51,107 nt of DNA from Pseudomonadota bacterium (GTDB lineage: Bacteria; Pseudomonadota; Gammaproteobacteria; Pseudomonadales; Moraxellaceae): positions 1-51,107 of the forward strand of contig CAUJHL010000140.1 in the NCBI GenBank assembly GCA_963204705.1, in the 5' to 3' direction. How positions within the stretch are numbered: position 1 is the stretch's first letter; each line of letters opens with the position of its first letter. Position numbers and translations under genes: made by a program. Below the pieces are notes generated by a model. The model was not told where the DNA came from. It did not search any database and saw nothing but the letters and a program-made list of their open reading frames with translations. Below are positions 4,841 to 40,291 of this stretch, in pieces.

Positions 4841-6013
4841 GTGAGACTGACGCCGAGTGTCATTCCGCTTAGCCTTTACCTGCACATGCCCTGGTGTGTC
4901 AAAAAATGCCCCTACTGCGACTTTAACTCGCATGCCCTGCCGCCGTCTTCCGCTGGGAAATGGGTGTTGGACGCAGAATTGGAGCGTCAGTATATTCAGG
5001 CGCTGTGCGCGGATCTGGAGGCCCAGCAGTCACTGGTACAGGGACGGCCGATTCACAGTATTTTTATCGGCGGCGGCACGCCCTCGCTGATCTCTGCTGC
5101 GGGCTATCGCCAGTTGTTTCAGCATATCCGGCGGCAGTTTCTTCTTGAGCCCGATTGTGAAATTACTCTTGAGGCCAATCCTGGTACGCTGGAACATGCG
5201 CCCTTTGAGTCGTATTTAGAGGTCGGTATTAATCGGCTGTCGCTCGGCGTACAGACCTTTGAGCCGCATTTGCTGCAAACACTGGGTAGGGTGCATTCTT
5301 CCATGGAGGCCGAGCAGGCCATCCGGCTGGCCCGACAGGCTGGCTTTGAACGGGTCAATGTGGATCTCATGCACGGCTTGCCGGGTCAGGATGCCGCGAT
5401 GGCAGTGGCCGATTTGCAGCAGGCCCATGCGGCAGGGGCGACGCATTTGTCGTGGTATCAGCTGACGATCGAACCCAATACCGTGTTTTTTCGTACTCAG
5501 CCGGTGCTGCCAGAAGACGATGCGCTGGGGGAAATTCAGGACATGGGTGAGCACTGGCTGCGGCGTCAGGGTTATCAGCAGTATGAAGTGTCCGCCTGGG
5601 CAGGCGAGCAACCGTGCCGTCACAATCTGAATTACTGGCAGTTTGGCGATTATCTGGCCGCTGGCGCCGGTGCTCATGGGAAAATTACCCAGCCTGAGGG
5701 CATTTACCGTTTTCAAAAGAGCCGCTCACCCAAAGATTATCTGGCAACGGTTCCGGCACCCCTATTGCAGTGGCAGGAGGTGACTGAAACAGAACTGCCC
5801 TTCGAATTCATGATGAATGCCCTTCGGCTGACACAGGGCGTCCCCCGTGCGTACTGGGAGCAGCGAACGGGTTTGCCGTGGGAAAGCCTTGCCTCAACGG
5901 TAGTGGAATTGCGGCAACAGGGCTTGCTGGGCATGGATCCACAGCGACTGGTGGCGACGGAGCAGGGCCTGCGTTATCTGAATACCGTACTGGAACGCTT
6001 TCTGCAGGATTGA
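4841..6013 (+). CDS. hemW: Radical-SAM heme chaperone HemW (HemN-like, YggW family)
   Basis: Radical-SAM CxxxCxxC box (HMPWCVKKCPYCDFNSHAL), FIGGGTPS, SWYQLTIEPNT and HNLNYWQFGDY all match remembered E. coli HemW. An in-frame GTG at 4841 gives an N-terminus of the same length as E. coli. The upstream ATG at 4787 is an alternative start. Confidence 0.88.
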   Translation: MRLTPSVIPLSLYLHMPWCVKKCPYCDFNSHALPPSSAGKWVLDAELERQYIQALCADLEAQQSLVQGRPIHSIFIGGGTPSLISAAGYRQLFQHIRRQFLLEPDCEITLEANPGTLEHAPFESYLEVGINRLSLGVQTFEPHLLQTLGRVHSSMEAEQAIRLARQAGFERVNVDLMHGLPGQDAAMAVADLQQAHAAGATHLSWYQLTIEPNTVFFRTQPVLPEDDALGEIQDMGEHWLRRQGYQQYEVSAWAGEQPCRHNLNYWQFGDYLAAGAGAHGKITQPEGIYRFQKSRSPKDYLATVPAPLLQWQEVTETELPFEFMMNALRLTQGVPRAYWEQRTGLPWESLASTVVELRQQGLLGMDPQRLVATEQGLRYLNTVLERFLQD

Positions 6014-6039
6014 TCTGTTGGCTTTCACAGAAGCTTGCG

Positions 6040-6068
6040 GTGTTTGGCATAGTGTTTGGCAGAGTGTT
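6040..6068. repeat. 12-bp tandem repeat GTGTTTGGCA(T/G)A x2 plus a 5-nt partial third unit
   Basis: Read directly: gtgtttggcata gtgtttggcaga gtgtt. It lies in the hemW-rpmI spacer about 50 bp upstream of the putative rpmI promoter. Confidence 0.85.
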
Positions 6069-31373: not shown

Positions 31374-32081
31374 ATGAGTCGTACCCGTACGTTTAACATC
31401 TATCGCTACGATCCAGACAAGGATAAAGCGCCCTACATGCAGTCCTACCAGCTGGAGCTGGATGATGGCGATCGCATGTTGCTGGATGCCCTGATCAAAC
31501 TGAAAAAGCTGGATGAAACCCTGTCATTCCGCCGTAGCTGCCGTGAAGGTATTTGCGGTTCGGATGGCATGAACATCAATGGCAAGAACGGTCTGGCCTG
31601 CCTGCAGAACCTGAATGACCTGCCCGCTACCATTGAGCTGCGCCCGCTGCCCGGCCTGCCAGTGATTCGCGATCTGGTAGTGGACATGAACCAGTTTTAT
31701 ACCCAGTATGAAAAGGTTCGCCCGTATCTGATCAACAATCAGCCTGCGCCACCGACCGAGCGCCTGCAATCACCGGAAGACCGTGAAAAGCTGGATGGTT
31801 TGTATGAGTGCATTCTGTGCGCGTGCTGCTCAACGTCCTGCCCATCCTTCTGGTGGAATCCTGACAAGTTCCTTGGCCCATCTGCCTTGCTGCATGCCTA
31901 TCGCTTTATCGCTGATAGTCGTGACCTGGATACCTCGGAGCGGCTGGCGCGTCTGGATGATCCGTTCAGCCTGTTCCGTTGCCGTGGCATCATGAACTGT
32001 GTGTCGGTCTGCCCCAAAGGCCTGAACCCGACCAAGGCGATTGGTCATATCCGTAATCTGATGCTGGATTACGCGGGCTAA
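31374..32081 (+). CDS. sdhB: Succinate dehydrogenase iron-sulfur subunit
   Basis: 235 aa with three cysteine clusters ([21 protein letters not shown]; [12 protein letters not shown]; [17 protein letters not shown]). Confidence 0.97.
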
Positions 32082-32131
32082 AAAGTGGTATTTGAATCTA
32101 AGTAACTTCTATTGAGTTACTGCTCAATAAC

Positions 32132-32159
32132 AAAACGCCCCTTTGTTGGGGCGTTTTTT
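32132..32159 (+). terminator. Rho-independent terminator after sdhB
   Basis: aacgcccc-tttgtt-ggggcgtt followed by a T-run. It is preceded by a separate 7-bp hairpin, agtaact..agttact, at 32101-32121. Confidence 0.88.
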
Positions 32160-32249
32160 ATGTCTATGACCTGATAATTTCAACATACCCGCTTGATTAT
32201 TAAGAGCTTTTAAACAAAAAACATTATGCCACAAAATAACTTAACATGT

Positions 32250-32294
32250 AATTTTTGAAAAATTCAGTACTGAATGATAGGAAAATGATAGGAA
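32250..32294. promoter_or_regulatory. Cluster of operator-like symmetric/repeated elements upstream of the islet genes
   Basis: 7-1-7 inverted repeat AATTTTTgAAAAATT (32250-32264). Perfect 14-bp palindrome ATTCAGTACTGAAT (32262-32275). Perfect 11-bp tandem AATGATAGGAA x2 (32273-32294). All were read directly. Function is inferred. Confidence 0.4.
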
Positions 32295-32623
32295 GCTGTG
32301 TGACGGATCTTCATGTAAATCTTGTGCATAAGTTTTTCATTTTTTTATTTATATGTTTGGTTGATTGATGGTAAGGCCTGGGCTGGAAGCTTCGCTGCCA
32401 AAAGATGTAGCGTGGTTGAGGCATGTTCCAAAAAGCATACAAATCCCCAAAGTGTGGTATTGATCTTAAGAATGGGGATGGGCAGAATCAGGTCATCCAA
32501 AAGCATGCTCCCCGAAAACTTGCACTCATTACGGTTTTGGCGATAAAAGCTGCTCTGGCAACATTGGGTTTTGTGGTTTATCAGGCAAAACTATCTATTT
32601 AATGTGGGTAAAGGAATATTACC

Positions 32624-34333
32624 ATGATATCAAAATCTTTCAAACTAACAACAGTAGCAGCACTTGTAGGTGTTGCCCTGGTTGGCGTTGGTTGTAAAAA
32701 CTCCAAAAACAATGGTAGCAATGGTGTTGTGTATACGCCTACTACCGCTCCAGCTACTAACCTGACTCAAGCTTACAAATACATTATTGTATTTTTGGAT
32801 GCTGCTACTGGCCAGCCTGTGGCGGACGATCTGCAAGTGACATTTGCAGGGCCGGCTACAGTTGTTGATAATAATGGTGTTTCGGTTGCGGGAAAAACCT
32901 TTGATGTTAAGCAGGCTATGGCTGTGGCTAGTGACCTTGCAGGCACAGATGACAACTTTACAGTTATAGCATCTAATAGCACAGCCGGCTGGGTTAAAAC
33001 CGGCGTTAAAGTTAGCAAGGCTACTTCTTCTGAAGGGTCGCAGACTATTGAAGTCAAGTTGGTAAACACTAAAAATGCAGCGGCATTGAATAATAATACT
33101 AATGTGGGTATCGCTATGGCCGTTAGCACTGCCCCAGCAGGTGCTAATAATGCTATTACGGATCAAGCAGCTGGCTTGACAGTAACCACCCCAGCCAAGA
33201 CTGTGACGAATACTTCTGGCGCTCAGGAAGCAATCGGCACGGCAACAATCACTATCCCTTCGGGTACTAAAGCATATGCAACGGAAGCTGATGCTGCGGC
33301 CGGAACCAATCCGATTACTGTTACGGGCAATATCAGCCTTTCGGCGGTCAAATTCGGTACTAATAGTACGTCGTCCTTGTCTGCCTTCCCAGGTGGCTTC
33401 CAGCCAACTATCGCTGGTAATGCGACCGGTAACTTTATTACTGGTGGTTTTGCACAGTTTAATTTGACTGATTCAAATGGCAATGTACTGAAGAATTTTG
33501 ATAAGCCTCTGAATCTGACCATTGACTTGCCGAAAGTTTCGAAAAAGGTAGATGGGACTGCGCTTAATCCAGGCGATACCTATGATGTATGGAGCTATAA
33601 CGAAAGTACTGGCCAATGGGTAAAAGAAACGAGTGGTATCATTCAGCTGAAAGCTTCTGATCCTACCAACGCTGCTTCTGAGCCATATTATGAGGTTAAA
33701 TTTACCTCTAAACACTTGTCTTACTGGAATCTGGATTTCCACATTCCTACAAGCTGTACTGGTCGTATAAACCTGCAACGCCCTGCAGGTGATGCACGCT
33801 ATCTCCAAGTAGAGTTACTGGGCCTGCCCTCAAATATGTTCTATAATCGCTACCAGTTTATGACTACCGACAGTAATTTGACTTTCCGTAATTACCCAGG
33901 TGGCCAAAAAGCAACCGTGATGATTAAAGATTTAAATGGCAGGCTTCTGGGTAGTACTACACCTGTTGACATTTGTGCTACACCGCCAACGATTAATTTG
34001 GTTAATCCACTTCCAACAAATATAAATGTGGATGTAAATGTTACTGAAAGCTGCCCTGATGGCTCTAATAAACGTGCATTGCCGACTAATATTTGGATGA
34101 ATCTGAATTATTATATTTGGCGTTCAGGCTATGCTTATAAGGCTGCAAATTCTAACGTAGCTACAGCAACGTTTAGAACCTTGCCAGTTGGCCAAAGTGC
34201 AAGGCTGTATGTATACGATCGGAATACCCGCTGGTGGGACCAACGTCAAGTTACTATTGGCTCTTCAATAAATGTAAATCTGCCAACCATGACTTGCAAG
34301 GCAGTCCGGCCTACTGGTGCAGTTGGTCGCTAA
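32624..34333 (+). CDS. Large Thr/Asn/Ala-rich lipoprotein, probably outer-membrane/surface associated, family unknown
   Basis: 569 aa. Signal peptide plus lipobox (VALVGVG|CKNSKNNGSNG), with Lys at +2, so no Asp retention signal. The N-terminal two-thirds is low-complexity T/N/A/G-rich. The C-terminal part is beta-rich with 6 Cys. SD-like aaagga lies upstream of the ATG. Confidence 0.75.
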   Translation: MISKSFKLTTVAALVGVALVGVGCKNSKNNGSNGVVYTPTTAPATNLTQAYKYIIVFLDAATGQPVADDLQVTFAGPATVVDNNGVSVAGKTFDVKQAMAVASDLAGTDDNFTVIASNSTAGWVKTGVKVSKATSSEGSQTIEVKLVNTKNAAALNNNTNVGIAMAVSTAPAGANNAITDQAAGLTVTTPAKTVTNTSGAQEAIGTATITIPSGTKAYATEADAAAGTNPITVTGNISLSAVKFGTNSTSSLSAFPGGFQPTIAGNATGNFITGGFAQFNLTDSNGNVLKNFDKPLNLTIDLPKVSKKVDGTALNPGDTYDVWSYNESTGQWVKETSGIIQLKASDPTNAASEPYYEVKFTSKHLSYWNLDFHIPTSCTGRINLQRPAGDARYLQVELLGLPSNMFYNRYQFMTTDSNLTFRNYPGGQKATVMIKDLNGRLLGSTTPVDICATPPTINLVNPLPTNINVDVNVTESCPDGSNKRALPTNIWMNLNYYIWRSGYAYKAANSNVATATFRTLPVGQSARLYVYDRNTRWWDQRQVTIGSSINVNLPTMTCKAVRPTGAVGR

Positions 34334-34423
34334 TACAGACTCTGGCGGTAGTGATAAAAGGCTTTTATGCTGCCTTAGGGTGGCATAAAAGCTTTTTTGT
34401 TTTAAGTATAAGAGAGTGCTTTA

Positions 34424-36502
34424 ATGTCCAAATCCATTAAACTGTTCATTACCTGCATGGTGGCTGGACTGGCTTCTGCACATGGATTCTCTGCACCTGC
34501 CAATAGTTTGACTGGCGGATACACAAGTGCCATTACTACACCGATTACAGCCACCTTGGCTTCGGGAGATATCTCGTTAAGTTATGCCAATAGCCTGAAC
34601 ATTGCAGGAATAGACAATAGAGGAATTGACCTCAGTTTAGGATTGGGATTATTCGACAATTTTGAAGTGTATGGGGTGGTGGCGAGCCACGATCTCAATA
34701 CTAATTGCTTTACGAACAACTGTGGTTTGCGAGATTTATCCGTATCAGCGAAATACCGCTTGCCGGAATTGGCAACACTTATGGCGATTCGAGGGTCGCC
34801 ATGGATCCCGAGCGTTGCACTCGGAGGTACTGACATTGCTGGCGAAACCAAGCAAAACACAGCCTATTATGGAGTGGCACAATGGGATTTGCCACAGTGG
34901 AAAGCGAGTGCGGGGTGGGGAAAAGTTCGGTCAAATAAAATACACTCCATGCTGGACGGACCTTTTGGCAGCCTTAGTTGGACGGTATCAGAGTACGCGC
35001 AGCCCACTCTGGAATATCTGGATGGTAAACCACAAATTGGAAGCCAATTTTTTTACCAGCCCACCGATTGGCAGGCCTCTTTCCATGGTAGCTTTTATGT
35101 TCGACCGCAAGACGATAAAAACAAATGGGGTTTTGGTCTTGGAGTGCAGCGCTCTATGGATTATTCAGCTTTCCGTACCCACACTAAATTCAATCGAACA
35201 AATTCCAATGAAGGCAGGTCGATAGAAGCTGAAACAATCGATTCATCGGTTAATCGTATGGCCCAAGCCAATTCACATTCTTTGCATTCAGGTGTGAGGG
35301 GTGATCTAAACGGTCTGGTGCAGCAACTATCCAGTGAAGGATTTAACGATATTGCCATCAAACAGGGAGCGATTTACACCATCCTGGTAGATGCCCAGTC
35401 GTTTGACTGGAATATAACGGATGCTATGGGTGCTGCTTTAAAACAGGTATACCGCTGGTCTTCACTTCAGTCACAGTCGATTGGAGTTCGATTAGTGCTG
35501 CAAAAGTATGGGATTCCATTGGTAGCTGTCGAAACCGATACGGCATGTTTATCACGCTGGGCAGGGGAGTCTACTTCCTGCCAGTCTCCTGTGATTCGTC
35601 GTATACAAACCGATGGTCTAGCTGAGCTGGTTCAGGGAGTTCAGTGGGATTATCAGTCGACAGGATGGACACAATCCAAAGTCGAGTTCTATCCTAAACT
35701 TGCCTACACTCTTGCTACTGAGTACGGCGTGCTGGATTATTCTCTAGGTCTTGGTACTTCCATTAAGCTGCCACTTGGTTGGAATGGCAGCCTCGCTGAA
35801 ATTGAAACGGTAATACCAGTTCGAAATAGTGAAGATTTTCAAACAGGTAGCATATATCAGTCCAGCGCCCTGCAATCTGGCATTGAGCGTGCTGTCTTGC
35901 ACCAATTCTGGGTGCCTGCGCCACAAATAATGGCGCACGTGATGGGCGGTCAGCTAGGGCGTGATGAAACTGGGGTGCTTGCCGAGAGCCAATGGCAAAA
36001 CCATACGGGTGGGCAGCAATTTCGATTATCCGCAGGAGCCTATACCCTCTCTGGTAAGTCGGGGAGTCAGGTGCCGGTTTGGGCGGGGTACCGGTACCAG
36101 TGGAAGAATATGCAGGTGGGTGTGGATGCAGGACGGTTTTACGGTGGAGATTCGGGGCTGAGATTGAGTAGTCAGTGGTGGTATGGTGACACAGCCGTTC
36201 AGCTACAGTTTGCCAAGACCAAAGACCCTGAGGTCGCTTCTTTAATCGGCCTACAAATAAGCTTCCCTCTGACTACCCGTAAAAATCTTTATTACTCAAA
36301 CCTGCATTTAGGGGGTGACCCGGATTACAGCAAAGAAATTCGAACCCGTGTTCACAGTCCGCAAAACACCTTGGTCGGTAGCAGGGCTCGCGATTTTTCG
36401 GATAATTATACGATTGACACACTGCGAAATCGTGATCGCTTGTCTGAAAAATATGTGTTGGGTCAACAGTCGCGCATTAAGGCTGCATTTCTCGCCTATT
36501 GA
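34424..36502 (+). CDS. YjbH/GfcD-family outer-membrane protein (stand-alone)
   Basis: 692 aa (E. coli YjbH is about 698 aa). Signal peptide (MVAGLASAHG|F). The N-terminal pattern GGYTSAITTPITATLASGDISLSY, then SVSAKYRL...WIPSVALGGTDIAGET...YYGVAQW...SAGWGK, and the C-terminal GRFYGGDSGLRLSSQWWYGDTAV...GLQISFPL all parallel remembered YjbH segments (GGVGLLQTPTARMAREGELSLNY; DLKLRLWEE..WLPQVAVGARDIGGTG; GQYLAGDKGGTLE...GVYVSVPL). The terminal residue is aromatic (..FLAY). Confidence 0.72.
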   Translation: MSKSIKLFITCMVAGLASAHGFSAPANSLTGGYTSAITTPITATLASGDISLSYANSLNIAGIDNRGIDLSLGLGLFDNFEVYGVVASHDLNTNCFTNNCGLRDLSVSAKYRLPELATLMAIRGSPWIPSVALGGTDIAGETKQNTAYYGVAQWDLPQWKASAGWGKVRSNKIHSMLDGPFGSLSWTVSEYAQPTLEYLDGKPQIGSQFFYQPTDWQASFHGSFYVRPQDDKNKWGFGLGVQRSMDYSAFRTHTKFNRTNSNEGRSIEAETIDSSVNRMAQANSHSLHSGVRGDLNGLVQQLSSEGFNDIAIKQGAIYTILVDAQSFDWNITDAMGAALKQVYRWSSLQSQSIGVRLVLQKYGIPLVAVETDTACLSRWAGESTSCQSPVIRRIQTDGLAELVQGVQWDYQSTGWTQSKVEFYPKLAYTLATEYGVLDYSLGLGTSIKLPLGWNGSLAEIETVIPVRNSEDFQTGSIYQSSALQSGIERAVLHQFWVPAPQIMAHVMGGQLGRDETGVLAESQWQNHTGGQQFRLSAGAYTLSGKSGSQVPVWAGYRYQWKNMQVGVDAGRFYGGDSGLRLSSQWWYGDTAVQLQFAKTKDPEVASLIGLQISFPLTTRKNLYYSNLHLGGDPDYSKEIRTRVHSPQNTLVGSRARDFSDNYTIDTLRNRDRLSEKYVLGQQSRIKAAFLAY

Positions 36503-36591
36503 GGCAGCCATCGTTGTCAGATGGTTACACCTGACAACTGGGCTAAAGACTAAGGGCGAATCTGTTACTACCCATGTCATTTGCATTAAAA

Positions 36592-36622
36592 GCCCATTCA
36601 CTTGAATGGGTTTGCTTCGTTT
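36592..36622 (+). terminator. Rho-independent terminator after the YjbH-like gene
   Basis: gcccattca-ctt-gaatgggt followed by a T-rich stretch (ttgcttcgttt). An additional hairpin, gttgtcag..ctgacaac, lies at about 36513-36540. Confidence 0.7.
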
Positions 36623-37429
36623 ATAGTCTTGGTTTTATCAGGCCGCACACACAGTGCGTTACGCAAAACAACAATACTCCCGCTTCCGACGGTTGATGGA
36701 CTACTATGGGTAGACTATTTTTAACGGGAATGATTGCTATTGGTGAAAAAAATTATTGTTGGTGTTCTAAGGTGGTAGTCTTTCGACCAGCGCATGCTAA
36801 GGCAGGAATTTTAAAGTGGTTTATTATTTGTTCAGCTCGGACTTAGGGGCGGGCAACGGCTACTAAACTCATCACATCCGCTACTGCCTCTGTGATACGA
36901 AGGTGTGATAGCTGTTTTATTGAATCGGGTGTTGCCAGATTTTAAAGGGACTTCATAGAAAATCGGGACGGATTTTAGGCAATTAGGAAAGAATCGATCG
37001 TCTGCGCACTCGATTTTCGGTCATTGATTTTGATAGCGAGTTTTGATGGCATGTTAAATGCTGTAATGATCGGAGGCAGTCCTTTTGGCCAAAGTACGCA
37101 TAGCACGCTACTTTCGCCAAAACGATTTGCAAAAATGCCGTTCTGAGCTGCCAAAACCTTCATTGTAAGGTGGAAACAGCCGGAGTGCGGTAGCGTTACC
37201 ACGATGATGCCGTCAGTGACTCTAGTTCTTGGTGAGTTACTGGAGTTGTGCTTGTTTATTCAGGATGACGGTGTGATTGTGGGTGGGCGGTATCTGGTGG
37301 CGGGAGGCTCCCTGCGCTAGAGCTGTCGGCTCGGATTGAGCCAATTCTGTCTGGGAAACCGACAGAAATTCAACGTGGGTATGTCCAGCGGGCAGCTTGC
37401 ATTTTTGCGATCCAGAAAAGAGCACACTC

Positions 37430-40291
37430 ATGCAACAGCGTGACCCAAATTTTTCCCTTCCTCCAGACACCCAACTGTCTGCAGAAAATGCCGCCTATCT
37501 CGAAGAGCTCTATGAGCATTATTTGACCTCGCCTCAAGAGGTTGATCCTGAGTGGGCGCAGTATTTTGATCAGTATCCCAAAGGGGATCAGCCACATTCC
37601 AATGTACGCGAGCAATTTTTGCTACTGGCGCGCAACAGTACTCGTGTCCAGCCGATGCTGCAAAGTTCGGTCAGTACGGAGCATGAACGCCGCCAGGTTG
37701 GTGTCTTGCAGCTGATTGCGGCCTATCGAAACCGTGGCCATCAAAAAGCAAAGCTTGATCCGCTGGGTTTGGCCAAGCGTGAAACGGTTCCCGATCTGGA
37801 GCTGGCTGCGCATGGGCTGTCGCGTTCAGATCTGGACACCGTGTTTCAAACCGGCAATCTGGCGATTGGCAAGGGTGAAGCGACACTGGGTGAGATGGTT
37901 CAGGCAATGGAAGCCATCTACTGCGCGTCGATCGGCGCCGAGTACATGCACATTGTGGACACCAAGGAAAAGCGCTGGATTCAGCAGCGTCTGGAGGGGG
38001 CGCGTGGAATTCCACAATCTACTCCAGAGGTGCGCAAACATTTACTGGAGCGCCTGACGGCGGCGGAAGGCCTCGAAAAATACCTGGGCAGTAAATACGT
38101 CGGTGCCAAGCGCTTTGGTCTTGAAGGCGGCGAAAGCTTTATCCCGATGGTCAATGAAATGATTCAGCGGGCGGGTACTCAGGGTACGCTGGAAGTCGTG
38201 ATCGGCATGGCTCACCGTGGCCGGCTGAATTTGCTGGTAAATATTCTGGGTAAAAACCCCGGCGATCTCTTTGATGAATTTGAAGGCAAGAGTCTGGCTA
38301 AAAAAGGCTCGGGGGATGTCAAATACCATCAGGGCTTTTCGTCGAATGTCATGACGCCGGGCGGTGAAATTCATCTGGCACTGGCGTTTAACCCGTCCCA
38401 TCTGGAAATTGTCAGCCCCGTTGTTGAAGGCTCTGTGCGTGCACGTCAGGTTCGGCGGGGGGGTGTGGGCGGTGATAGCGTATTGCCCATTATCGTGCAT
38501 GGCGATGCTGCCTTTGCGGGGCAGGGCGTCGTCATGGAAACCTTCCAGATGTCCCAGACACGTGGCTACAAGGTCGGCGGTACGCTGCACATCGTGATCA
38601 ATAATCAGGTGGGCTTTACCACTAGCCGGCAGGCCGATGCACGTTCTACCGAATACTGTACCGACATTGCCAAAATGGTTCAGGCGCCGATTTTCCATGT
38701 GAATGGCGACGACCCTGAGGCGGTGCTGTTTATCACCCAGGTAGCGCTGGACTACCGGATGCAATTTAAGAAAGACGTAGTAATCGATCTGTTCTGCTAT
38801 CGCCGCCGGGGCCATAACGAAGCAGATGAGCCCAATGCTACCCAGCCGCTGATGTATCAGGTGATCAGCAAGTTACCTACTACCCGTACCCTGTATGCTG
38901 ACACGCTGGTGAGCCAGCAGGTCCTGACACGCTCCGAAGCAGATGCCATGGTTGAGGACTATCGTTCTGCACTGGAAAACGGTGAGCATGTCGCCTATTC
39001 ACTGGTACAGGAACCGAATACCAGCCTGCATGTCGATTGGTCGCCTTTTTTGGGTCATGAGCTGGTCGATGAATGGGAAACGGGTGTCAGTCAGGAAAAA
39101 CTGGTGGGTTATGCACAGCGCATGGCGACGTTGCCTGAAGGTTTTGTCCTGCAAAAACAGGTGCAAAAAGTCATTGATGACCGGTTTAAAATGCAGTCGG
39201 GCGAGATGCCTCTGAACTGGGGTGCCGCCGAAACCCTCGCTTATGCCTCACTGCTGGATGAAGATTTTCTGGTGCGCATTACCGGACAGGATGTAGGTCG
39301 TGGGACTTTCTCTCATCGTCATGCGGAACTGTTCAATCAGGTGGATGGCAAGCTGTACGTGCCCCTGCGTCATCTGAAGGAAAACCAGCCACGCTTTGCT
39401 ATCTACGACTCGCTGTTGTCCGAAGAGGCGGTATTGGCGTTTGAGTATGGCTATGCCACGACCATTCCAAAATCATTGATCATCTGGGAAGCCCAGTTTG
39501 GCGATTTTGTGAATGGTGCCCAGGTTGTCATCGATCAGTTTATCTGTTCGGGAGAAACCAAATGGGAGCGGGTGTGCGGTCTGACCCTGTTGCTGCCTCA
39601 TGGCTTTGAAGGGCAGGGGCCGGAGCATTCTTCTGCGCGTCTGGAGCGTTTCCTGCAATTGTGTGCAGAAGACAATATGCAGGTCTGTACCCCAACCACG
39701 CCCGCGCAAATTTTCCACGTCCTGCGCCGTCAGGCAGTTCGTCCGCTGCGCAAGCCATTGATCATCATGTCACCCAAGAGCTTGCTTCGCCACAAATTGG
39801 CAATTTCAGATCTGAGTGAACTCACTTCTGGTGGTTTCCAGACAGTGATGGATGAAGTGGATGCGCTGCAAAAGCCCGACGTTAAGCGCATCGTGCTGTG
39901 TGGTGGCAAGGTCTATTACGATTTGCTGGAAAAGCGCCGCGAAAAACAGCTGGCGGATGTTGCACTGGTGCGTATTGAACAGCTGTATCCATTTCCCGCC
40001 AAGAGCCTGCAGGCACTGATCGCTTCCTACCCTTCGGTGGAGCAGGTCGTCTGGTGTCAGGAAGAGCCACAAAATCAGGGTGCCTGGAGCTTTGTGGCGC
40101 CACTTTTGTATCAGGTCGCCTTGCAGGTACGTCCTGAAAAAATGCTGCCCGTCAGTTTTGCTGGCCGTCCACCCTCCGCAGCTCCGGCGTGCGGCTCCCC
40201 GTATTTACATGCCCATCAACAAGCAGAGCTGGTTGCCCAAGCCTTAGGCATTCCTCTGGAACAACAAGGAGATTCCAACAATGGCCACTGA
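37430..40291 (+). CDS. sucA: 2-oxoglutarate dehydrogenase E1 component
   Basis: Internal ATG at 37430 ([10 protein letters not shown]...[26 protein letters not shown]) aligns with the E. coli SucA N-terminus pattern (...SWIEQLYEDFLTDPDSVD..W). 953 aa with a ThDP-binding body. Confidence 0.96.

Follow-up and report, generated by a model that had tools for sequence, protein, structure and literature searches.

A strain-variable lipoprotein and YjbH/GfcD-type barrel cassette between sdhB and sucA: a candidate accessory module of capsule or exopolysaccharide assembly

Introduction

What are two genes of atypical composition doing between sdhB and sucA, and do their products belong to one outer-membrane system? 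The question is raised by contig CAUJHL010000140.1 of a Moraxellaceae bacterium (assembly GCA_963204705.1), of which positions 1–51,107 were analyzed; this whole stretch is referred to here as the window. Its open reading frame (ORF) map places gltA on the minus strand, followed by sdhCDAB, a two-gene islet, sucA, sucB, lpd, sucC, and sucD. Pfam labels carried by contig L011 (98% identity to the window) and the source name given for the SucD cluster supplied the gene names. NuoI falls into one cluster with that of Aquirhabdus parva (Moraxellaceae) at ≥90% identity, which gives the organism a rough placement. The islet encodes a lipoprotein and, downstream of it, a protein of the GfcD/YjbH family, which is among the most widespread outer-membrane protein families (PMC11494523) and whose function is still unassigned (PMC8592465, PMC11494523). 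We lean toward the view that the islet is a strain-variable cassette for a barrel–lipoprotein accessory module of Wza/Wzb/Wzc capsule or exopolysaccharide (EPS) assembly, and probably a version of a known capsule accessory module of the Gfc/Yjb kind.

A strain-variable islet

Guanine–cytosine (GC) content falls to 0.39–0.50 across 32000–37500, against ~0.55 on both sides. At third codon positions (GC3) it is 0.368 in the lipoprotein gene (z = −7.2) and 0.452 in the YjbH-like gene (z = −4.7), taking the 30 other ORFs of the window as reference (0.613±0.034). In 16 other loci with the pair, its GC content is mostly near that of the flanks. An AT-richer islet with atypical codons, as described in an earlier note made from the sequence alone, is therefore confirmed. 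Three metagenome contigs (L011, L012, and L013) encode an SdhB identical to that of the window and have flanks with 96–99% DNA identity to it; neither islet gene is present in them, and the distance from sdhB to sucA is 869 bp. Alignment of the window with these empty-site strains ends at 32080, within the stop codon of sdhB, which reads TAA in the former and TAG in the latter, and picks up again at 36634, so we place the islet at 32081–36633. In place of the islet, the empty-site strains have 71 bp of unrelated spacer carrying a terminator of its own (AACCTGCCttctGGCAGGTTTTT).

These comparisons also revise the size and consequences of the insertion. The earlier note had 5.3 kb wedged between the two operons; the islet is real, but ~0.8 kb of that length (36634–37430) is native spacer. 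Nor can the insertion be the origin of the separation of sdh from suc, as had been suggested, because the empty-site strains already carry a terminator-like hairpin and the ~0.8 kb spacer.

The two ORFs are the only ones in the islet, which has 543, 90, and 131 bp of non-coding space, and no integrase, transposase, or other mobility gene is among them. No target-site duplication, direct repeats, or terminal inverted repeats were seen at the borders, and no divergent recombination tracts were found in the flanks beside the junctions, the flanks being ~99% identical to L011 right up to both. With two ORFs only and borders free of repeats, the islet does not qualify as a classical genomic island or mobile element. 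Its atypical composition and its presence or absence among close relatives, including strains with an identical SdhB, are those of a horizontally acquired accessory segment, in line with the proposal that it arrived without any visible mobility gene.

Two protein families that occur together

The YjbH-like protein matches PF06082 with 29.0 bits (gathering threshold 24; E = 6.4e-07; residues 94–524), which places it in the YjbH family as the earlier note had supposed, and the same domain is present in all of its homologues that were found. Its neighbor is a bacterial lipoprotein by its signal peptide and lipobox cysteine, Cys24; the N-terminus (MISKSFKLTTVAALVGVALVGVGC followed by KNS) fits what we take to be the general lipobox pattern, and Cys24 is ≥90% conserved in 39 homologues. 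The N-terminal half is composed of 17% Ala, 16% Thr, and 9% Asn, and no Pfam or NCBIfam family was matched, so the description of a Thr/Asn/Ala-rich lipoprotein of no known family stands.

This lipoprotein family is large. A word-index search returned 40 relatives with 35–44% identity, and an exhaustive profile search brought the family to 1,445 cluster representatives at 50% identity, of which 390 reached E ≤ 1e-30, almost all being 515–620 aa long and matched over their full length; a third word-index search with the YjbH alignment added almost nothing. Sixty-one lipoprotein loci were recovered by a scan of species-representative genomes. Full-length relatives occur in Moraxellaceae/Acinetobacter (A. 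sedimenti and several metagenome-assembled genomes) and Comamonadaceae (Hydrogenophaga, Malikia, and Ramlibacter), and more distant ones in Pseudoalteromonas, Campylobacterota, Bacteroidota, and Ignavibacteria.

A YjbH gene adjoins the lipoprotein gene in 13 of the 15 informative full-length lineages from Moraxellaceae and Comamonadaceae, in either order, and again in five more distant loci. The two genes are separated by 27–185 bp in all lineages but one. Co-occurrence of both families elsewhere, on which the idea of a two-gene module depended, is thus well documented. Pairwise identity in one family tracks that in the other (r = 0.74 overall and 0.83 within the close subfamily; Mantel p ~2e-4), a pattern that fits co-inheritance and is no proof of interaction.

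Seen from the side of the barrel, the partner is more variable. We assembled 33 related YjbH loci, namely L077, L078, and 31 that a motif-based metagenome scan returned at 22–31% identity to the window protein; wza or wzc lies downstream in ~12 of the 33. Pfam matches to the YjbF, GfcC, or YjbE families were absent from all 38 ORFs found upstream of related YjbH genes, and the expectation that YjbH always travels with YjbF, YjbG, and YjbE fails for this branch. Another lipoprotein of 240–300 aa, belonging to one of at least five families, lies immediately upstream in ~13 of the related loci. Judging from these gene contents, this YjbH branch would generally lack GfcA/B/C and generally have a lipoprotein partner, the window's family being one recurrent partner among several. 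The short lipoproteins preceding YjbH at L077 (6878–7783), L078 (4882–5664), L079, L080, L085, L094, and L104 have Gly/Ser-rich linkers and no Pfam match. Five other upstream lipoprotein families were compared with the window's lipoprotein and rejected as relatives, since the hhalign alignments covered no more than the signal peptide and lipobox.

In 17 loci from Bacteroidota, Ignavibacteria, and related groups (L031, L035–L037, L040–L044, L046, L047, L050, L051, L057, L061, L062, and L066), a distant lipoprotein homologue stands immediately beside a protein of ~220–245 aa, at a distance of 0–30 bp, and this small protein is the upstream one in 16 of the 17. This small partner scores 27.7 bits against OMP_b-brl, just under the threshold of 28.7. 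With YjbH in Proteobacteria and Campylobacterota and a small barrel-like protein in these 17 loci, the lipoprotein family seems always to come with an outer-membrane barrel. The small barrel was rejected as a relative of YjbH (hhalign probability 3%), and the Bacteroidota-type lipoprotein with its OMP_b-brl-like neighbor constitutes a second uncharacterized lipoprotein–barrel pair.

Predicted architecture

The AlphaFold2 (AF2) model of the lipoprotein is confident, with a predicted local distance difference test (pLDDT) score of 84 and a predicted template modeling (pTM) score of 0.80. It is all-beta, with residues 1–31 disordered and a disordered linker of ~30 residues preceding several beta-sandwich domains in series. 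Conservation within the family is highest at residues 241–390 (motifs FPGGF, GFAQFN, and HLSxWNLD), and four Cys residues are invariant. A Foldseek search of the model against the Protein Data Bank (PDB) returned generic strings of immunoglobulin-like (Ig) and fibronectin type III (FnIII) domains, pilins, and carbohydrate-binding modules only, with low TM-scores, and searching PDB sequences with profiles of both families yielded nothing useful. The FAM171 N-terminal domain (PF10577), which gave the lipoprotein its only Pfam match, was considered for residues 239–344 and rejected at 19.7 bits against a gathering threshold of 31.2. This sub-threshold similarity to the eukaryotic FAM171A1/A2/B family recurs in other members of the lipoprotein family, and the solved FAM171A2 structure (PDB 9y6n) scores E = 0.46.

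In its longer members, the lipoprotein family also has Cadherin-like, Big_9, Calx-beta, collagen, and Lcl_C domains, and one such adhesin-domain fusion, in L026, is the immediate upstream neighbor of a YjbH gene. Because domains of these kinds are typical of extracellular adhesins, they suggest that the lipoprotein is exposed at the surface. Six of the seven amino-acid differences between two cassette alleles fall in lipoprotein residues 54–137; the barrel is unchanged.

For the barrel, AF2 predicts 12 strands (residues 49–244), an alpha/beta domain (295–403), 13–14 further strands (419–653), and helices at 663–691. GfcD has been described as a 12-strand N-terminal barrel, a periplasmic middle domain, a 13-strand C-terminal barrel, and a C-terminal plug (PMC11494523), and the predicted layout matches this published architecture (PMC11494523, PMC8346858) in a model of low confidence (pLDDT 63, from an alignment of seven sequences). 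Foldseek against the PDB returned generic outer-membrane barrels, including AlgE, LptD, and PgaA, with low TM-scores.

Polysaccharide gene neighborhood

The evidence for a link to polysaccharide comes from the neighbors of the pair in other genomes. The genes wza-wzb-wzc adjoin it in L004, L008, L019, and L022, and in Comamonadaceae-type loci the pair is divergent from them. Capsule sugar genes of the ItrA, PglD, DegT, and Gdr types adjoin it in L007, L017, L018, and L025; in four Moraxellaceae/Acinetobacter loci the pair follows Bac_transf, a PglD-like acetyltransferase, a DegT aminotransferase, and Polysacc_synt_2. In total, the pair lies beside wza-wzb-wzc or capsule sugar genes in 8 of 15 lineages. 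The independence from Wza/Wzc that had been read from the window is not borne out by these relatives, which usually carry the pair in such surroundings.

The cassette does not belong to the gfcABCD/yjbEFGH operon type. As the earlier note had observed, no homologue of GfcA/YjbE, GfcB/YjbF, or GfcC/YjbG is encoded in the islet, where there is no room for gfcB or gfcC and the small ORFs contain no GfcA/YjbE-like sequence; Wza and Wzc are likewise missing from the window.

Proposed function and its alternatives

In the mechanism we propose, a cassette made up of a leader, the lipoprotein gene, an intercistronic hairpin, a GfcD/YjbH-type double-barrel gene, and a terminator would have been acquired by recombination. 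The two proteins would be cognate partners of one outer-membrane module. The barrel would sit in the outer membrane, and the lipoprotein, anchored by its N-terminal lipid and most likely located at the cell surface, would bind it through its conserved central and C-terminal domains, filling the place of E. coli GfcA/B/C. As an accessory branch of capsule or EPS assembly by Wza/Wzb/Wzc (Wzy-dependent), the module would either assist the passage of a lipid- or protein-linked polymer through the outer membrane or keep the polymer at the surface. Precedents exist in the E. coli system, where the lipoprotein GfcB together with GfcC binds GfcD (PMC8592465), and GfcD has been modeled with an LptD-like lateral gate for lipid-anchored glycans or polymer (PMC11494523).

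Several observations weigh against this proposal. Over its 51 kb the window contains no wza or wzc homologue and no capsule sugar gene, so the module may act alone in this organism. A lipoprotein of this family was found upstream in only 2 of the 33 related YjbH loci and was lacking in the other 31, and in L028 and L029 the lipoprotein gene has no YjbH gene within 10 kb. The identity correlation between the two families also reflects shared organismal ancestry, and the barrel model is of too low confidence for the C-terminal lateral gate to be judged from it.

The isolation of the cassette in the window, repeated in L020 where the pair stands alone among housekeeping genes, speaks for a polysaccharide-independent function. 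The earlier note had proposed that the YjbH-like barrel exports, anchors, or displays the lipoprotein; in the self-contained display or adhesin system considered here, its FapF-like N-terminal barrel would bring the lipoprotein to the surface or fix it there as an adhesin or variable antigen. The apparent constancy with which the lipoprotein family is accompanied by a barrel, whether YjbH or the small OMP_b-brl-like protein of the 17 loci, agrees with such a system, as do the fusions to adhesin domains and the concentration of allelic differences in the lipoprotein. For the N-terminal barrel of GfcD, described as FapF-like, polypeptide secretion has been put forward as a speculation (PMC9603273). 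We nonetheless regard this self-contained system as rather unlikely, given the 8 lineages in which the pair directly adjoins wza-wzb-wzc or capsule sugar genes and given that a folded multi-domain protein of 55 kDa would have little room in a 12-strand barrel or in the small Bacteroidota barrel. The lipoprotein could instead face the periplasm in the manner of GfcB–GfcC, docking on the middle domain of the barrel and controlling the entry of lipid-linked polysaccharide into the C-terminal barrel. GfcB and GfcC have been proposed to act at the middle domain of GfcD (PMC8592465), homologues of both are missing here, and the unrelated lipoproteins upstream of ~13 related YjbH genes suggest a general need for a lipid-anchored partner. 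This arrangement is unlikely in our judgment, since fusions to Cadherin-like, Big_9, Calx-beta, and collagen domains typically mark extracellular proteins, a chain of Ig-like sandwiches is unlike the LolA-like fold of GfcB or the beta-grasp fold of GfcC described in the literature, and the Foldseek matches of the lipoprotein are of the pilin, Ig/FnIII, and carbohydrate-binding kinds.

We also consider a further reading, which we hold to be doubtful. The lipoprotein would be cargo or co-structure of the GfcD-like protein, and its Ig-like domains would reach the surface via or alongside the N-terminal FapF-like barrel and bind capsule polymer there. If true, this would assign a first concrete function to the N-terminal barrel, so far unexplained, of the large GfcD/YjbH family, and would imply a widespread system of surface lipoprotein plus dedicated barrel, with ~1,445 lipoprotein clusters and a different barrel in Bacteroidota.

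Population history of the cassette

A second occupied contig, L001, allows the age of the cassette to be set against that of its surroundings. The cassette core (33450–36450) differs from the window at ~5 positions in 3 kb (~99.8% identical), and the YjbH gene shows two synonymous and no non-synonymous changes; the right flanks of the same two contigs are 6.2% divergent. Two right-flank haplotypes can be distinguished, one shared by the window (occupied) and L011 (empty) at 99.0% identity, the other by L001 (occupied) and L012/L013 (empty) at 99.4%. Because occupied and empty states occur on both flank backgrounds, the cassette is younger than the flank divergence and has been reshuffled by recombination, which points to recent spread by that route. 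We read the window allele as compositionally foreign and as recently imported or spread.

The site itself has a longer history. L003, a relative at a greater distance that is almost the same as L016, encodes an SdhB with 88% identity to that of the window; the same cassette lineage follows directly, with a GC content of 0.60–0.63 that matches its host. The lipoprotein and barrel protein of L003 are 44% and 47% identical to those of the window, and the gene downstream of its cassette resembles an iron-dependent alcohol dehydrogenase, not sucA. Since L003 carries the cassette lineage directly after sdhB with native GC, we read this position as an old home of the lineage and not as a one-off insertion point. 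The earlier note had named, among the outcomes that would refute its reading, that all relatives carry the same two genes here with native codon usage; the three empty-site contigs do not carry them, and L003 does, with native GC.

The L003 cassette lends some weight to a history in which the cassette is ancestral at the site and the empty sites are deletions, with no horizontal acquisition at all. L003 also shares leader blocks and intercistronic hairpin sequence with the window, as such a history would have it. We consider it improbable, because the GC3 of the window copy lies 5–7 standard deviations under that of host genes, the near-identical core is found in two strains whose right flanks have diverged, and the 71-bp spacer of the empty-site strains, with its own terminator, is unlike a simple deletion scar.

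The site after the cassette gathers foreign DNA in the L003/L016 lineage too. Directly after the cassette terminator, L003 has a low-GC (0.39) gene on the minus strand (4979–6061) with T5orf172/MUG113 and Sel1 domains, and L016, otherwise 96% identical to L003, has a different segment of ~600 bp in its place.

Non-coding elements

Besides the two genes, the cassette contains a leader and three hairpins (Table 1). A terminator-like hairpin at the cassette end agrees with the earlier note's terminator for the pair, and the hairpin between the two genes is one that the earlier note did not mention.

Table 1 Positions of the cassette, its parts, and its flanking features in the window
Feature	Positions	Strand	Remarks
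sdhB, left flank	31374..32081	+	Matches empty-site strains up to stop codon
Islet (cassette)	32081..36633	+	4,553 bp in place of the 71-bp spacer of empty-site strains; low GC
Terminator-like hairpin just 3' of sdhB	32132..32157	+	Islet-borne; 10-bp stem then T-run
Leader/promoter region	32425..32623	+	Blocks GCATACAAATC, GTGTGGTATTGATCTT, GGTCATCCAAAA, and AATGTGGG kept in L003
Lipoprotein gene (LIPO)	32624..34333	+	569 aa; Cys24 lipobox; all-beta domain string
Hairpin between the two genes	34356..34397	+	19-bp stem then T-run; sequence kept in L003
YjbH/GfcD-family outer-membrane protein gene	34424..36502	+	692 aa; signal peptide; starts 90 bp after lipoprotein gene
Terminator-like hairpin at cassette end	36590..36613	+	20 bp before right border
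Native sdhB–sucA spacer	36634..37430	+	Outside islet; present in empty-site strains; two haplotypes ~6–7% apart
sucA, right flank	37431..40291	+	From ORF map and L011 comparison

The leader blocks are ~70% identical between the window and L003 (858–1053), which is above the conservation of the coding regions; they were not found in 15 other lipoprotein loci. No conserved ORF is present in the leader and an Rfam scan gave no match for it, and the conserved leader may be a cis-regulatory RNA or an operator. A small leader ORF (59 aa, 32423–32602) was rejected as a conserved gene for lack of conservation in L003. Across 31900–37600, the Rfam scan at E ≤ 1 returned two sub-threshold matches only, both on the minus strand.

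The intercistronic hairpin of the window (GCTTTTATGCTGCCttagGGTGGCATAAAAGC) is nearly identical to that of L003 (2799–2831; GCTTTTATGCCACCtccgGGTGGCCTAAAAGC), while the proteins on either side are only 44–47% identical. A stem-loop occupies the spacer in all five examined loci with the lipoprotein-then-YjbH order. The element is probably an attenuator or a 3' stabilizer of the lipoprotein transcript, and it probably sets the level of lipoprotein above that of the barrel.

Operator-like palindromes had been reported upstream of the pair, and our repeat search gives them little substance: one 18-nt inverted repeat with 72% complementarity and one 11-nt tandem duplication were recovered, and no convincing operator. 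The tandem duplication is a perfect one (AATGATAGGAA twice, at 32273–32294) in the AT-rich region upstream of the cassette genes. It lies within 32200–32449, the most divergent stretch between the two occupied strains, with 31 differences. On the other side of the cassette, the native spacer is unusually long at ~0.8 kb and contains no convincing ORF or Rfam match; a hypervariable patch at 36834–37033 has 41 differences in 200 bp between haplotypes.

Relation to known systems

The closest relatives in organization are gfcABCD(-gfcE-etp-etk) and yjbEFGH of E. coli and orf1-wbfDCB of Vibrio, which likewise combine a PF06082 double barrel with an adjacent lipid-anchored partner. In relatives of the window cassette the pair adjoins wza-wzb-wzc and is often divergent from it, as in V. 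anguillarum (PMC8592465). The cassette differs from the gfc/yjb loci in that GfcA/YjbE, GfcB/YjbF, and GfcC/YjbG give way to a single partner, a 569-aa multi-beta-sandwich lipoprotein of an undescribed family. Its genes are separated by a hairpin, without the overlap that would allow translational coupling, and it is a stand-alone accessory module between sdhB and sucA.

Other barrel systems bear a more general likeness. LptD–LptE also joins a large outer-membrane barrel to a dedicated lipoprotein, but LptE is about one third the size of the cassette lipoprotein and has no sequence or fold relationship to it. The fusions in the lipoprotein family suggest an extracellular protein, and the cassette module is not essential, since strains without it exist. 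In Slam/TbpB-type translocons a surface lipoprotein is encoded beside a dedicated outer-membrane barrel, whereas the cassette barrel is of the YjbH family rather than DUF560, nothing characteristic of Slam was found, and the surroundings consist of polysaccharide genes. Wzi, which holds polymer at the surface as an outer-membrane accessory of Wza/Wzc systems, illustrates one possible role of the pair; it is a single 18-strand barrel without a lipoprotein partner and without homology to either cassette protein.

Significance

Neither this pairing nor the lipoprotein family is described in the literature that we searched. The loci collected here contain a whole branch of GfcD/YjbH proteins without GfcA/B/C that is paired with a lipoprotein instead, and one recurrent partner is a large uncharacterized family of ~550 aa proteins (1,445 clusters at 50% identity, no Pfam entry). 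The cassette offers a simpler two-gene system in which to probe the role of the double barrel, and cultured carriers of the pair exist in Acinetobacter sedimenti, Malikia, Ramlibacter, and Pseudoalteromonas, among them A. sedimenti A3.8 and M. granosa P1. At the level of the population, the locus is a clear natural case of a surface-structure cassette segregating without a mobility gene.

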